Part shown: piece after piece, positions 34,246-42,328 of the stretch | Position numbering within the stretch: the stretch's first letter is position 1 | Layout of the letters: the number at the start of each line of letters is the position of its first letter | Sequence record: MK327933.1 | Length of the DNA: 64,000 nt | Source of the DNA: Escherichia phage vB_EcoM_G2285 | Reading direction: 5' to 3' (one strand) | The notes under the pieces: generated by a model | Seen by the model: the letters and a program-made list of their open reading frames with translations, nothing else | Databases searched by the model: none | What the model was told of the DNA's origin: nothing | Translations under genes and position numbers: made by a program

Positions 34246-34656
34246 CTACTTTTTCTTATGTTGGATATTCCAAGGCGGGTTGAACTTTTTGATAAAAAGC
34301 GGTTCTTCAAGGTCCATTGTTGCGATGGTCATTGAACCAAGTTCGTTGGTGACTGAAAGGTCAAAACATTGGCGGGCCCAGAATTCAACCTTTTTGCCTT
34401 GCATTAAGGCATCCAAAATCATAAGTGATTTTCTTGAATCTGAAGTCTGGTCTTTTCGATTTATGGCTGTTCGATAATAGTTAATGCGTTTCTTTAAATT
34501 CTTGGTTTTACCAATATACACAAGTTCGTCATCTATAGCAATAGCATATATGACATTTTTCTTATTAGGGACATCGACTGTTTTAATTGTTGCATCTTCT
34601 AATAGCTCCAATTCCGTATATTTAATAAAGGAATATTCGGCGGCGATATCTTTCAT
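34246..34656 (-). CDS. denA: Endonuclease II
   Basis: 136 aa (T4 DenA 136); GIY-YIG-like YAIAIDDELVYIGKT. Confidence 0.8.
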   Translation of the reverse strand: MKDIAAEYSFIKYTELELLEDATIKTVDVPNKKNVIYAIAIDDELVYIGKTKNLKKRINYYRTAINRKDQTSDSRKSLMILDALMQGKKVEFWARQCFDLSVTNELGSMTIATMDLEEPLFIKKFNPPWNIQHKKK

Positions 34657-34664
34657 AATAAAGT

Positions 34665-34679
34665 GGGACCGAAGTCCCG
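34665..34679 (-). terminator. Hairpin (gggac-cgaa-gtccc) between nrdB and denA
   Basis: Perfect stem with CGAA loop. Confidence 0.5.
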
Positions 34680-34682
34680 TCC

Positions 34683-35185
34683 TTAGAAATATTTTTTGTA
34701 CGAATTGATTACATTTTGGTCTACATCATTATCAATTTGTGCGACAAGATAAGAACTGATTTCAACTTCTTGTGGGGCTGCTTGAACCAAATCAGAGTTC
34801 AAATACTCACGAATCCATGGAATAGGATGACGAGTTGATACGTCTTTAAGAGGACATGGCAGACCACAACTACGCATACGAGACACGGTAAGATAATCCA
34901 CAAATTCACTTAGGATTTTAACATTTAGACCTGGAAGAGCACCATCTTTAAACAAGTGTTCAGCCCATTCTTTTTCTTGAGCGTTAACTTCCATGAAAAT
35001 ATCAACTGCTTCTTGTTCACACTCTTGAGCAATTTTGACCCATTCATCACCGTCTTCGCCATCTTGTAAAGCACGAATAATATATTGAGTGCCCTTGAGG
35101 TGGAGCTGTTCATCACGAGCAATGAACTTCATAATCTTGGCATTACCTTCCATGATTTCCATATTCTTGTGGAAGTTAAAGGTAC
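34683..35185 (-). CDS. nrdB: Ribonucleotide reductase small subunit NrdB, exon 2 (track start 35216 is an artefactual TTG)
   Basis: R2 motifs MEGNAKI and IARDE; junction placed by conservation so the Cys codon is split T|GT. Confidence 0.8.
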
Positions 35186-36274
35186 CGTATGTTCGATTGA
35201 GCTCGCTAATTCTCAACCCGTTCTCTTATGAACTGCTGCATGTTACCATGCAGTCCAGACTATATCACAATCCCGGAGGGATTCTCCCCATTTCGAGTCG
35301 CTTGACCCTACGTCCGAAGACTAGTCGTTGAACCTTGTTTTGCAATTGTCGCCGTGCCATCGTTTATATGTTGATGGTGATAAATCTTTCTTATCACAAT
35401 ATGGACAATTCAATTGAATTCTATTTGGATTTAATTTACATCTGTCATTATGTTTTAGATAAAATCCAGGACCTTTACCAATGTGACCACAGAAATCACA
35501 TGTGATTTCTTTTTGTGCAGGATGGGTCCCGTTCTTAACCATTTCTAATGTTTTTGCTGATGTTCTTTTCTTATGGTCTTCTGATAAGAAATGATGTGAA
35601 CCGTCATTTACCCGTTTTGATTGAGTTTCTGACTGCATTTTACCACCGCAAAATACATGAGTACCTTCTTTTATAGCTGCAATATTGCGTTCTTTAACTT
35701 TTGCAATATGCTCAGCTTGTTGAAAATTATGTATACCTAATGCAACTCTATTTAAATTAGATTTACGCTGTATTTCACCATCTAAAAGATGAAATGTACC
35801 ATTTTCTATCTTAGATTTAATAGAGGCAATATTTTTAGCTCGTACTTCAGGGATATTAAAAATCTGGATTTCTCTAGATTTTGCGGCTTTAGAAGCTAAT
35901 TCAGAAATTTCTTCAGGAGAATATTTCATTCTAAGCTTTATAGCATGACAAGCCTGGTAATCTTTTTGAGCTAAATGTATATCATAATGTTCCTGTATAG
36001 AAAGGCACATCAAATTATCTAAATCATTATTTTCACGGTTACCGTCTTTATGATGCATTTCGTATGTTCTTCCATCAGAATCTTTAGGTATAGGTCCGTT
36101 AGCATCTATCCAAATTTTTCTATAGTTCAATTGTGCATCCTCTTAAAAGTATAATCATATTTATATTATACTAATTAAAGGTGCAAGCAAAACCTTGGCT
36201 GCTAGTTTTCCATAAAGGACTTTCCAGCAATTAAAGGAGTTTTCGATAAACGTTACCGTTTAAAGGCGCATTTT
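35186..36274 (-). mobile_element. Group I intron in nrdB (about 1089 nt) containing an intact homing-endonuclease ORF
   Basis: Exon 1 reading frame hits TAA right after the inferred 5' splice site; 3' region shares catgtcaccatgcag/cagactata/tttcgagtc/cttgaccc blocks with the td intron; ends in G. Confidence 0.75.
35321..36130 (-). CDS. I-TevIII: HNH homing endonuclease I-TevIII (full length, 269 aa); start codon here reads TTG
   Basis: HNH motif HHKDGNRENNDLDNLMCLSIQEHYDIH and C-terminal cysteine clusters; lies inside the nrdB intron. Confidence 0.8.
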   Translation of the reverse strand: MNYRKIWIDANGPIPKDSDGRTYEMHHKDGNRENNDLDNLMCLSIQEHYDIHLAQKDYQACHAIKLRMKYSPEEISELASKAAKSREIQIFNIPEVRAKNIASIKSKIENGTFHLLDGEIQRKSNLNRVALGIHNFQQAEHIAKVKERNIAAIKEGTHVFCGGKMQSETQSKRVNDGSHHFLSEDHKKRTSAKTLEMVKNGTHPAQKEITCDFCGHIGKGPGFYLKHNDRCKLNPNRIQLNCPYCDKKDLSPSTYKRWHGDNCKTRFND

Positions 36275-36950
36275 ACGCAAAAGATACATAAAAACGAATA
36301 GCTTCCAATGCGTTGATTACATGGAGGCAAAGGTAAAGAGATTTCATTAAAGCACGTTTAGCTTCGGCTTCTTGTTTAATAGCTCGGTTTAAACGAAAGA
36401 CGGCATCAGGAGATTCTTTAGCTAGTTCTACAAATTCTTTAGCGTTTTCCCAATAACGAGCTTTAACCAGAACATCATCATAATATCGTCCGATAGATTC
36501 GGCACGCTTCATAATAGCTTCATCTAATACAATCTCATCAAACACCTTCGATGGATCTGTATAAAGATTTCGCATAATATGAGTATATGAACGAGAGTGA
36601 ATAGTTTCACTGAAAGTCCATGTAGCAACCCATGTATCTAATGAAGGGTCTGAAAGCAATGACATAAGTACCGCAGATGGTGCTCTACCTTGGATAGAAT
36701 CTAATAATGATTGATACTTAAGGTTGTTGGTAAAGATGTCCTGTTGGAACTGTGGAAGCTTATTAAACTGGGCCGAATCCAACATCAAGTTTACTTCCTC
36801 GGGACGCCAAAAGAACGAGAGCTGCCGCTCAATGAGTTCTTCAAATACTCGATGTCGTTGAATATCATATCGAGCTAAACCTAATCCAGAACCAAAGAAC
36901 ATCGGTTCATTCAAAACATTGACTTGTTGTGTGTTAAAAACTGTACTCAT
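36275..36950 (-). CDS. nrdB: Ribonucleotide reductase small subunit NrdB, exon 1
   Basis: 225 codons ending ...EAIRFYVSFA, conserved R2 iron-centre region. Confidence 0.8.
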
Positions 36951-37003
36951 TATATTTTCTCACTTAGTTTAACTCATCCATGAGTAAATTATAATCAAAA
37001 GTC

Positions 37004-39601: not shown

Positions 39602-39913
39602 TTATACCGCCATTTTAGCTTTGATAGTTGGATGAGATTCGTAATTTTTAAGAACGAAATCAGAATGTGTCATCGTTCCAGTAACCCAGTCCATTTGGAT
39701 TTTTGTAGGCCAATTCTCAAAATTACTAGGCCAATTAATTTCAAGAGAACATAACTCTTTAGGTTCACGACGAAGAACTTCTTTGCATTGTTCTACATGA
39801 TTGCTGTAGATATGCGTATTGCCGCCTGAGAACACTAAATCACCTGGGATAAGGTTACACATCTTCGCTACAATATGAACTAACGTAGCATATGATGCAA
39901 TATTAAATGGAAG
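39602..39913 (-). CDS. td: Thymidylate synthase, exon 2 (the track's initial M is the intron's terminal AUG)
   Basis: Begins LPFNIASY...; 103 codons; junction matches T4 td splice site (...CAUAAUG|CU...). Confidence 0.85.
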   Translation of the reverse strand, partial: LPFNIASYATLVHIVAKMCNLIPGDLVFSGGNTHIYSNHVEQCKEVLRREPKELCSLEINWPSNFENWPTKIQMDWVTGTMTHSDFVLKNYESHPTIKAKMAV

Positions 39914-40929
39914 CATTATGTTCAGATAAGGTCGTTAATCTTACCCCGGAATTATATCCAGCTGCATGTCACCATGCAGATCAGACTATATCTCCAACTT
40001 GTTAAAGCAAGTTGTCTATCGTTTCGAGTCACTTGACCCTACTCCCCAAAGGGATAGTCGTTAGGCATTTATGTAGAACCAATTCCATTTATCAGATTTT
40101 ACACGATAAGTAACTAATCCAGACGAAATTTTAAAATGTCTAGCTGCATCTGCTGCACAATCAAAAATAACCCCATCACATGAAATCTTTTTAATATTAC
40201 TAGGCTTTTTACCTTTCATCTTTTCTGATATTTTAGATTTAGTTATGTCTGAATGCTTATGATTAAAGAATGAATTATTTTCACCTGAACGATTTCTGCA
40301 TTTACTACAAGTATAAGCAGAAGTTTGTATGCGAACACCGCACTTACAAAACTTATGGGTTTCTGGATTCCAACGCCCGTTTTTACTTCCGGGTTTACTG
40401 TAAAGAGCTTTCCGACCATCAGGTCCAAGTTTAAGCATCTTAGCTTTAACAGTTTCAGAACGTTTCTTAATAATTTCTTCTTTTAATGGATGCGTAGAAC
40501 ATGTATCACCAAACGTTGCATCAGCAATATTGTATCCATTAATTTTAGAATTAAGCTCTTTAATCCAAAAATTTTCTCGTTCAATAATCAAATCTTTCTC
40601 ATATGGAATTTCTTCCAAAATAGAACATTCAAACACATTACCATGTTTGTTAAAAGACCTCTGAAGCTTTATAGAAGAATGGCATCCTTTTTCTAAATCT
40701 TTAAAATGCCTCTTCCATCTCTTTTCAAAATCTTTAGCACTTCCTACATATACTTTATTGTTTAAAGTATTTTTAATCTGATAAATTCCGCTTTTCATAA
40801 ATACCTCTTTAAATATAGAAGTATTTATTAAAGGGCAGTCCTACAATTTAGCACGGGATTGTCTACTAGAGAGGTTCCCCGTTTAGATAGATTACAAGTA
40901 TAAGTCACCTTATACTCAGGCCTCAATTA
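39914..40929 (-). mobile_element. td group I intron (1016 nt) carrying I-TevI
   Basis: Starts UAAUUGAGGCCUGAGUAUAAGG on the minus strand right after exon 1 ...TTCTTGGGT; length equals the T4 td intron. Confidence 0.85.
40061..40798 (-). CDS. I-TevI: GIY-YIG homing endonuclease I-TevI
   Basis: 245 aa; N-terminal GIYQIKNTLNNKVYVGSAKDFEKRW; reads as T4 I-TevI. Confidence 0.9.
   Translation of the reverse strand: MKSGIYQIKNTLNNKVYVGSAKDFEKRWKRHFKDLEKGCHSSIKLQRSFNKHGNVFECSILEEIPYEKDLIIERENFWIKELNSKINGYNIADATFGDTCSTHPLKEEIIKKRSETVKAKMLKLGPDGRKALYSKPGSKNGRWNPETHKFCKCGVRIQTSAYTCSKCRNRSGENNSFFNHKHSDITKSKISEKMKGKKPSNIKKISCDGVIFDCAADAARHFKISSGLVTYRVKSDKWNWFYINA

Positions 40930-42328
<1,399 letters not shown>

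Follow-up and report, generated by a model that had tools for sequence, protein, structure and literature searches.

An undeleted nrdB group I intron with a full-length I-TevIII reading frame in Escherichia phage vB_EcoM_G2285

The nrdB gene of Escherichia phage vB_EcoM_G2285 (MK327933.1) is interrupted by what is, with a probability of about 95 %, an undeleted wild T-even group I intron that holds an intact I-TevIII HNH gene in its P6a loop. The window analysed here is the whole stretch of 64,000 nucleotides in which this locus was found. The anatomy of the locus, its identity to the T4 and RB3 counterparts, the presence of the essential residues, the base-pair covariation, and a mosaic footprint were all computed in this study; splicing, expression timing, and endonuclease activity in G2285 itself we infer. 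The element is already known and, with the intact form characterised in RB3, is ordinary.

The divided nrdB gene and its intron

In the open reading frame listing of the window, nrdB appears on the minus strand as two pieces (36273-36950 and 34683-35216), both of which match Pfam Ribonuc_red_sm (profile positions 9-141 for the first and 171-271 for the second). When position 36275 is joined to 35185, the 676 nt and 503 nt add to 393 codons with the stop, and the frame is kept. In an alignment with E. coli R2 (E = 5.5e-127), the spliced NrdB of 392 aa shows no gap at the junction, which reads FYVSFAC/TFNF in the spliced NrdB and FYVSFAC/SFAF in E. coli R2. Only the junction that uses the omega-G at 35186 yields both the conserved Cys codon and the reading frame. 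The coordinates in the earlier note, which had nrdB split into two exons by an intron of about 1089 nt, therefore hold. The ligated-exon RNA junction predicted after the loss of 1089 nt is UUUGCGU/GUACCUUUAAC, the second part of which begins GUACCUU.

The intron is preceded by U (36275) and its last base is G (35186). Outside the segment that is deleted in T4 (NC_000866, T4p230/T4p231), it matches the T4 nrdB intron base for base at 598 of 598 positions, covering the ribozyme and the retained ORF sequence, and the identity extends through the splice junctions to 31 nt and 16 nt of the adjoining exons. The T4 record carries the annotation 'group 1A intron in nrdB', and the T4 nrdB intron is a classic self-splicing intron (PMC1865063). 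On this identity, the element is assigned as the T4-type nrdB group I intron.

The fold was modelled from P1 to P9.2 with the P3/P7 pseudoknot (Table 1), giving 72 pairs in 14 helices, including the P4-P6 domain and the IA-specific P7.1/P7.2. Across four distinct homologues, every one of the 288 cells (100 %) has a standard pair, compared with 31-40 % when the partners are slid. Three pairs are changed on both sides (two in P2 and one in P9) and three show wobble-only changes, in a covariation sample of only four distinct sequences and with a fold model derived from the G2285 sequence itself. The P1 pairs are invariant in 4/4 of the distinct sequences, with the U-G wobble at the 5′ splice site. 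At gathering thresholds, there is no Rfam match in the whole window. In a permissive search, RF00028 (Intron_gpI) gives a hit of 35.6 bits (E = 7.7e-07; gathering score 50), with the 3′ core (P7, P3′, P8, P7′, P9) placed correctly and the 5′ half misplaced into the ORF. Both the low score and the misplacement are due to the ORF insertion of ~850 nt that parts the two intron halves, and we take the shortfall to reflect how poorly the model copes with ORF-bearing introns rather than to speak against membership. The group I fold that the earlier note put forward for checking is supported by a full set of pairs and a correctly aligned, although sub-threshold, 3′ core. The non-coding ends of the element, its group I core, and the excision of its identical T4 counterpart from RNA led us to reject three other identities, namely a group II intron, an intein, and a free-standing endonuclease insertion.

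Table 1. Features of the nrdB locus in the window (helices are from the structure model)
Feature	Position	Strand	Details
nrdB exon 1	36275..36950	-	676 nt; terminal U at 36275; Pfam Ribonuc_red_sm N-terminal half
nrdB exon 2	34683..35185	-	503 nt, including stop codon 34683-34685; Pfam Ribonuc_red_sm
Group I (IA-type) self-splicing intron, predicted	35186..36274	-	1089 nt; T4 identity, structure model, Rfam 3′ core
5′ ribozyme half	36187..36278	-	all pairs standard; two compensatory pairs in P2 across homologues
P1	36275-36278 (exon GCGU) + 36266-36269 (intron GCGC)	-	U36275-G36269 wobble
P2	36247-36262	-
P3 5′ strand	36234-36239	-
P4/P5	36200-36229	-
P6 5′ strand; P6a 5′ strand	36197-36199; 36187-36193	-
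3′ ribozyme half	35186..35343	-	compensatory pair in P9; blocks common to td intron
P6a′; P6′	35337-35343; 35332-35334	-
P7; P7′	35322-35326; 35258-35262	-
P7.1; P7.2	35312-35321; 35295-35308	-
P3′; P8	35284-35289; 35269-35283	-
P9; P9.1/9.2; omega-G	35236-35253; 35191-35233; 35186	-
I-TevIII ORF	35321..36130	-	269 codons + TAG; TTG start; in P6a loop
HNH catalytic domain	35987..36121	-	residues 4-48; H26, H27, N39, H48 present
I25M codon	36056-36058	-	adjoins catalytic H26
Two zinc fingers, CX2CX12-13HX3C	35342..35500	-	residues 211-231 and 242-263; regular expression
T4 late-promoter motif TATAAATA	36158..36165	-	upstream of I-TevIII ORF
SD-sequestering hairpin	36134..36185	-	-14.9 kcal/mol; z = -3.95
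Shine-Dalgarno AAGAGG	36139-36144	-	8 nt upstream of TTG
Segment deleted in T4	35572..36062	-	491 nt; 4-nt placement ambiguity (35572-36062 or 35576-36066)
Mosaic patch	35189..36400		T4/TadeuszReichstein ancestry in JK45/KAW3E185-like exons; ancestry comparison
Exon 1 positions transferred from PMC1865063	36288..36291		surrounding 31 nt identical to T4

The td intron with I-TevI is also present in the window, with its ORF at 40061-40798. Like the nrdB intron, it is a phage group IA intron in which a peripheral loop houses a homing endonuclease ORF that is expressed late, and the P7.1-P7.2 and J8/7-P7′-P9 blocks of the two are near-identical. Two blocks, one of 25 nt (92 % identity) and one of 32 nt (90.6 %), agree with the conserved 3′ blocks that had been noticed earlier. 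I-TevI, of the GIY-YIG type, works as a monomer and cuts 23/25 nt upstream, whereas the HNH enzyme I-TevIII works as a dimer and cuts 14/16 bp upstream (PMC2988022, PMC1865063).

The I-TevIII reading frame and its expression signals

The ORF is free of internal stops, and its final 23 nt extend into P6a′, P6′, J6/7, and P7. It matches Pfam HNH_3 (E = 1.2e-11, 44.4 bits against a cut-off of 24.8) and carries two CX2C...HX3C clusters, as expected from the earlier description of a full-length HNH ORF with C-terminal cysteine clusters. Alanine at H26, H27, N39, H48, C211, C214, C242, or C245 abolishes cleavage or binding in I-TevIII (PMC1865063), and all of these residues are kept in G2285. The zinc-finger motif is as defined in PMC1865063, where the role of the region is DNA binding and dimerisation. 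Alignment to the RB3 I-TevIII CDS (CAA41802, X59078.1), a comparison suggested in the earlier note, gives 266 of 269 residues identical in an HNH-family protein, with no frameshift in the ORF, and PHROG 12324 is matched from end to end (residues 1-269 of 269, E = 6.6e-193). The ORF product is identified as I-TevIII, its 99 % identity to the enzyme that has been characterised being decisive for membership. A PDB sequence search with I-TevIII returned no solved homologue, the best hit (E = 0.28) being spurious. A Pfam FlgM match on residues 74-114 (26.2 bits, cut-off 25) was also rejected as spurious, the region being a lysine-/serine-rich helical linker of a DNA endonuclease. As reported earlier, the ORF does start on TTG, but this is not a peculiarity of G2285, the codon being conserved in 9/9 copies compared, including T4 and the GenBank annotation of RB3.

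Intron ORFs of this kind are under late or middle promoters and are regulated through a sequestered ribosome-binding site (PMC2988022). The late promoter, Shine-Dalgarno sequence, and hairpin of G2285 agree with that arrangement, and in a transcript begun after the late promoter the hairpin is not formable (-0.8 kcal/mol). It is proposed that the intron RNA would fold to the P1-P9.2 core and excise itself by the standard guanosine-initiated two-step transesterification, joining U36275 to G35185, which would restore a functional class Ia RNR beta subunit. In the early and middle nrdB pre-mRNA, the ribosome-binding site of the ORF would be locked in the hairpin. Late in infection, the intron-internal promoter would give a shorter transcript without the hairpin; since this transcript cannot form it, I-TevIII would be translated from the TTG. 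Repair from the intron-bearing genome would then copy the intron and adjacent exon sequence. The G2285 enzyme is potentially active, as the earlier note worded it, which is apt wording for an inferred activity.

Relationship to the introns of other phages

The RB3 intron (X59078.1 / CAA41802) agrees with that of G2285 in gene, insertion site, intron position, 269-codon ORF, TTG start, catalytic and zinc-finger residues, late promoter, Shine-Dalgarno sequence, and hairpin context. RB3 I-TevIII is an active, characterised enzyme (Robbins et al. 2007, PMC1865063), and the intron in RB3 nrdB, together with its I-TevIII, is attributed to Eddy & Gold 1991, as cited in PMC2988022. I-TevIII is annotated in the records of both RB3 and RB5. 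Their introns differ from that of G2285 by 13 nt changes over ~1090 nt, two of which are single-A indels (1089 versus 1091 nt), and in both an additional A stands close to the 3′ splice site. From the window to RB3, the protein differences are Y23D, M25I, and T265A, and the RB3 exons are only 77-84 % identical to those of G2285. RB3 has mobE between nrdA and nrdB, whereas there is no mobE in the ORF listing of the window.

The closest copy of the intron is in TadeuszReichstein (Bas43, MZ501106), where it is also 1089 nt, of T4 type, and undeleted, with two differences. The TadeuszReichstein protein has I25 and G246, compared with M25 and D246 in G2285. Over the final ~100 nt of exon 1, the two phages are also nearly identical (one difference), but the remainder of exon 1 and the entire exon 2 are only 77-86 % identical.

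In T4, the intron is 598 nt. The deletion, which lies wholly inside the P6a loop and is bounded by the imperfect direct repeat GGAAGAACATA / AGAAGACCATA (9/11 nt), takes the HNH motif, shifts the frame, and leaves a 97-codon zinc-finger remnant. With the T4 record describing an H-N-H I-TevIII made defective by a deletion, the earlier description of a shorter T4 intron with a truncated, inactive enzyme is correct. Inheritance of the T4 intron relies on MobE (PMC2790892); the G2285 intron is undeleted and lies in a window without mobE. In the annotated phage collection surveyed, there are 126 intron-bearing records, in four genera, and 84 of these have the undeleted ORF. Intact I-TevIII is the usual state among sequenced T4-like phages and the truncated copy of T4 is the outlier. 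The intact form is known from RB3, as the earlier note states, but is not confined to it.

Mosaic ancestry and the M25 variant

The intron and its flanking exons differ in ancestry. A patch of ~1.2 kb, made up of the last ~126 nt of exon 1 and the whole intron, has breakpoints at 36402/36400 and 35189/35169. Intron identity to other full-length copies is 87-100 % by region and 95.6-100 % in the 3′ core, yet exon identity is only 71-86 % to the less related phages (T4, RB5, S16, HY03, Bp7, and TadeuszReichstein). This difference fits homing with co-conversion of the exon. It is plausible, at somewhat less than even odds, that the patch instead stems from ordinary homologous recombination in which both phages carried an intron, rather than from endonuclease-initiated homing into an intronless allele. 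T-even genomes are mosaic everywhere, and the closest exon relatives, JK45 and KAW3E185, themselves have an RB3-type intron; the recipient may therefore already have had the intron, in which case the homing site would be disrupted. However, the patch is centred on the intron and reaches ~126 nt beyond it on the side of the cleavage site, against <17 nt at the opposite end, an asymmetry that is as expected for repair from a break at -14/-16.

M25 is found in none of the deposited records, with I25 in 77. Because it adjoins H26/H27, which are essential for cleavage, and sits beside the general-base histidine, a change that is private to G2285 might impair catalysis by I-TevIII, leaving an intron that splices but is a stagnant passenger as in T4, despite the full-length ORF. 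Homing endonuclease genes are expected to decay after fixation, and MobE, the trans mobiliser of the defective T4 intron (PMC2790892), has no gene in the window. Such an impairment is nonetheless improbable. The replacement of Ile by Met is conservative and keeps the residue hydrophobic, the HNH_3 score is still 44 bits with M25, and the ORF has no further unusual change, Y23 and T265 being found in other I-TevIII copies. The mosaic patch also points to this very intron lineage having been transferred recently. It is very doubtful that G2285 carries precisely the undeleted form from which the nrdB intron of laboratory T4 descends, together with a private M25 of consequence next to the active site.

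A gene-disrupting insertion that has made nrdB a split pseudogene is virtually negligible as an explanation, for although Rfam gives no gathering-threshold match and several deposited genomes list two separate NrdB CDSs, the sequence is identical to the self-splicing T4 intron (PMC1865063), the group I core is complete with the U-G pair at the 5′ splice site and the terminal G, the frame is precisely kept across the junction, and curated records annotate a two-piece join, the split CDSs being artefacts of annotation pipelines.

With the undeleted intron and intact I-TevIII gene as the preferred reading, nrdB is to be annotated as a single spliced gene, not as two fragments, and the I-TevIII ORF as starting at TTG, since the internal ATG picked by some pipelines would remove the HNH motif. 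The local mosaic may be a natural case in which an intron was transferred and the exons were co-converted asymmetrically, a phenomenon that is already well documented. Should M25 change how fast the enzyme cleaves, which metal it prefers, or whether it nicks or breaks the DNA, G2285 would hold a naturally occurring variant, altered next to the active site, of the one HNH homing endonuclease for which cutting as a dimer has been reported.

The interrupted nrdB gene and its intron

Based on Pfam matches, the two outer ORFs of the locus encode the ribonucleotide reductase small chain, covering N-terminal profile positions 9-141 and C-terminal positions 171-271. Joining of the exons with removal of 1089 nt gives a 392-aa NrdB in frame, which aligns with E. 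coli R2 (E = 5.5e-127) without a gap at the junction (FYVSFAC/TFNF vs FYVSFAC/SFAF), and the exon and intron coordinates proposed from the first reading of the sequence proved exact. The final exon base is U36275 and the final intron base G35186; as read from the sequence, moving the junction by 1 base either way loses the conserved Cys codon. A GGGAC-UUCG-GUCCC hairpin and U-rich stretch (34665-34678) lie between the nrdB stop (34683) and the start (34656) of the next gene, denA (34246-34656, 136 aa, matching Pfam GIY-YIG); the homologous hairpin site is marked as a putative transcriptional terminator in the record of phage KAW3E185.

Features of the split nrdB locus and of the intron structure model.
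Feature	Position	Strand	Remarks
nrdB exon 1	36275-36950 (676 nt)	minus	within 225-aa ORF 36273-36950
nrdB exon 2	34683-35185 (503 nt)	minus	within 177-aa ORF ending at 34683
I-TevIII ORF	35321-36130	minus	269 codons, TTG start; between the nrdB pieces
T4 late-promoter motif TATAAATA	36158-36165	minus	upstream of I-TevIII ORF
Shine-Dalgarno AAGAGG	36139-36144	minus	8 nt ahead of TTG
Hairpin pairing the Shine-Dalgarno	36134-36185	minus	predicted, -14.9 kcal/mol
P1		minus	exon GCGU with intron GCGC; U-G wobble at splice site (model)
P2		minus	GUAA tetraloop (model)
P3, P4, P5, P6		minus	model
P6a	5' strand 36187-36193; 3' strand 35337-35343	minus	loop contains the ORF (model)
P7		minus	pseudoknot with P3 (model)
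P7.1, P7.2		minus	UUCG loop on P7.1 (model)
P8		minus	model
P9, P9.1, P9.2		minus	GUAA loop on P9 (model)

The intron matches the 598 nt nrdB intron of T4 (NC_000866) at every retained base, with a common prefix of 212 nt and a common suffix of 390 nt; 491 nt are absent in T4 and present here. The T4 record labels its copy 'group 1A intron in nrdB' and its I-TevIII a 'defective DNA endonuclease ... deletion in proximal half; H-N-H family'. With this deletion the HNH motif is lost and the frame changes: reading from the TTG in T4 ends after 22 codons. Both end-points fall within an imperfect direct repeat (GGAAGAACATA / AGAAGACCATA), and the crossover has 4 nt of exact microhomology. Phage RB3 provides the full-length reference (GenBank X59078.1); its 810 nt 'I-TevIII' CDS (191-1000) also starts on TTG. 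The contrast between T4 and RB3 drawn in the earlier note is correct, and the alignment to I-TevIII that it proposed shows only three residues differing from RB3 (Y23D, M25I, and T265A, window to RB3). Likewise, PHROG 12324 ('intron-like DNA endonuclease') covers residues 1-269 of 269 (6.6e-193), and phrog_27406, the family of the 97-aa T4 remnant, aligns with residues 173-269.

The T4 nrdB intron is one of three group I introns in that phage (PMC1865063) and has been called self-splicing (PMC2790892). At the level of sequence, the base-for-base match to it is decisive for group I identity. Rfam gave no match at gathering thresholds. A permissive search produced a match to Intron_gpI over 35236-35476, at 35.6 bits against a gathering score of 50 (E = 7.7e-07), with the 3' core (J6/7, P7, P3', P8, P7', P9) aligned correctly and the 5' half misplaced into the ORF; such a result is to be expected with about 850 nt between the two intron halves. 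An explicit structure model was therefore written. The covariance-model fold suggested earlier holds for the 3' core and fails for the 5' half, while the explicit P1-P9.2 model pairs throughout.

Pairing was tested on the ORF-less cores of nine phages (four distinct sequences). Standard pairs fill 288 out of 288 cells of the model alignment, compared with 31-40 % after a shift of the 3' partners by 1-3 columns. All substitutions within helices keep the pairing, by compensation in two P2 pairs and one P9 pair or by wobble in P2, P6a, and P9; the others fall in loops or joining regions. This covariation favours the model, being supportive rather than decisive for a small sample and a model derived from the same sequence. 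The final 23 nt of the ORF also serve as P6a', P6', J6/7, and P7, its TAG stop (35321-35323) standing at the P7/P7.1 boundary.

The blocks said to be shared with the td intron of the same window are present, at nrdB intron positions 960-984 (P7.1'-P7.2, 92 % identity) and 1009-1040 (J8/7-P7'-P9, 90.6 %). The td gene (thymidylate synthase; 39602-41478, minus) is also split, into exon pieces 40927-41478 and 39602-39916, and its intron contains a 245-aa GIY-YIG ORF (40061-40798, minus) resembling full-length I-TevI. For the td intron, too, Rfam gave no match at gathering thresholds.

The endonuclease and its expression

The middle ORF matches Pfam HNH_3 (E = 1.2e-11, 44.4 bits, cut-off 24.8). I-TevIII is a dimer on which the mobility of the RB3 intron depends; H26A, H27A, N39A, and H48A abolish cleavage while DNA binding is kept, and disruption of its zinc fingers (motif CX2CX12-13HX3C) at C211/C214 or C242/C245 impairs both (Robbins et al., PMC1865063). 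Here the eight tested residues are all kept, as are the two finger motifs (211-231 and 242-263), in agreement with the 269-codon HNH ORF with C-terminal cysteine clusters first described. A private I25M change (C-to-G at 36056, codon 36056-36058) lies directly beside catalytic H26/H27. A 55-mer centred on this G, built so that every 28-nt seed must contain the variant base, matched no phage record, compared with 77 for the C version. It is quite improbable that I25M costs activity, because Ile to Met is conservative.

Between the HNH and finger regions, the linker (residues ~113-205, window 35515-35795) contains roughly four or five ~22-aa units in tandem, with G-x-H-x-F/A at the end of each (NGTFHLL, GIHNF, GTHVF, GSHHF, GTHPA). 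These units match no Pfam family; the only nearby match, FlgM on residues 74-114, is marginal and probably spurious.

The TTG start noted earlier is conserved, together with the Shine-Dalgarno and spacing, in all nine copies compared, the most diverged being that of Salmonella phage S16. An internal ATG called by some pipelines (e.g. the 690-nt CDS in MZ501106) would drop the HNH motif. The predicted Shine-Dalgarno hairpin is more stable than shuffled sequences (-14.9 vs a mean of -6.25 ± 2.19 kcal/mol, z = -3.95), and a transcript starting past the late promoter is predicted to be unable to form it (-0.8 kcal/mol). The same layout of late promoter and sequestered Shine-Dalgarno is reported for the three T4 intron ORFs (PMC2988022). 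The sequence GCACCTTTAATTAGT (36170-36184, intron positions 91-105) lies immediately upstream of the late-promoter region, with some overlap. It resembles the exon 2 start at the homing site, GTACCTTTAACTTCC, and would fit a putative operator for I-TevIII autorepression that PMC2988022 mentions.

Mosaic ancestry of the locus

Over about 24 kb surrounding the locus, identity to Escherichia phage vB_EcoM_G2469, Shigella phage JK45, and others is 96-97 %, and the gene order is that of T4 (rnlA-denA-nrdB-nrdA-td-frd); the source is a T4-like phage. The intron differs from that of T4 at no position, from that of Escherichia phage TadeuszReichstein at 2, and from the RB3/JK45/KAW3E185 lineage at 12-13, which places it in the T4 lineage rather than the latter. 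In contrast, the nearest exons are those of JK45 and KAW3E185 (exon 1 95-97 %, exon 2 99 % identity), those of T4 and TadeuszReichstein being just 76-86 % identical.

Breakpoints were mapped at sites separating JK45 from TadeuszReichstein. From 36945 to 36402 the window is JK45-like, bar a short T4-like patch (36822-36918); from 36400 to 35189 it is TadeuszReichstein-like, except at one exon 1 site and one intron site; and from 35169 onward it is JK45-like again. Approximately 1.2 kb, the final ~126 nt of exon 1 and the intron, is of other ancestry than its flanks, and reaches further on the I-TevIII cleavage side. Homing with exon co-conversion would leave such a pattern. Two intron-bearing phages could also have produced the mosaic by ordinary recombination, the less probable of the two routes, though by no means negligible.

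The T4-like patch (97 nt; nrdB nt 33-129) matches T4 and KAW3E185 at every base, unlike JK45, which is ~100 % identical to the window over the rest of exon 1. Its downstream edge coincides with the nick site of the HNH endonuclease MobE at nrdB nt 122-126 (PMC2790892), window 36825-36829; the patch may be what short-patch repair left after MobE nicked a genome that did not take up mobE. Only 53 nt (36951-37003), with no mobE or nrdB.1, separate nrdA (stop 37004) from nrdB (start 36950). Both genes are likewise absent there in JK45, whereas T4, RB3, and RB5 have nrdB.1 and mobE, a free-standing HNH endonuclease gene, in this position.

Distribution and annotation

Among 50,697 phage records, the whole nrdB locus (34683-36950) matched 879, the first 200 nt of the intron 126, and the 491-nt segment absent from T4 84; in 79 records the match covers 80 % or more of the full split locus. 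Based on these counts (84 with the segment, 126 with the intron), the intact I-TevIII form is the usual state and the T4 deletion the exception. Carriers belong to Tequatrovirus, Mosigvirus, Dhakavirus, and Gelderlandvirus, with recorded hosts in Escherichia, Shigella, Salmonella, Yersinia, and Klebsiella.

By every testable criterion except the Rfam gathering score, and as judged from sequence, the element is the T-even nrdB group I intron with I-TevIII, a member of both known families. The finding is already known, the element being annotated in dozens of deposited genomes; many records name the ORF 'I-TevIII', 'intron-associated endonuclease 3', or 'intron-like DNA endonuclease'. In many deposited genomes nrdB is entered as two or three unjoined CDSs instead of one spliced gene, or I-TevIII is given as a 'hypothetical protein' or begun at an internal ATG, for example phage Bp7 (HQ829472, 316-992) and three other compared loci. 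These labels are recurring annotation artefacts. The remaining value of the locus is in annotation hygiene and as a tidy natural case of intron transfer.
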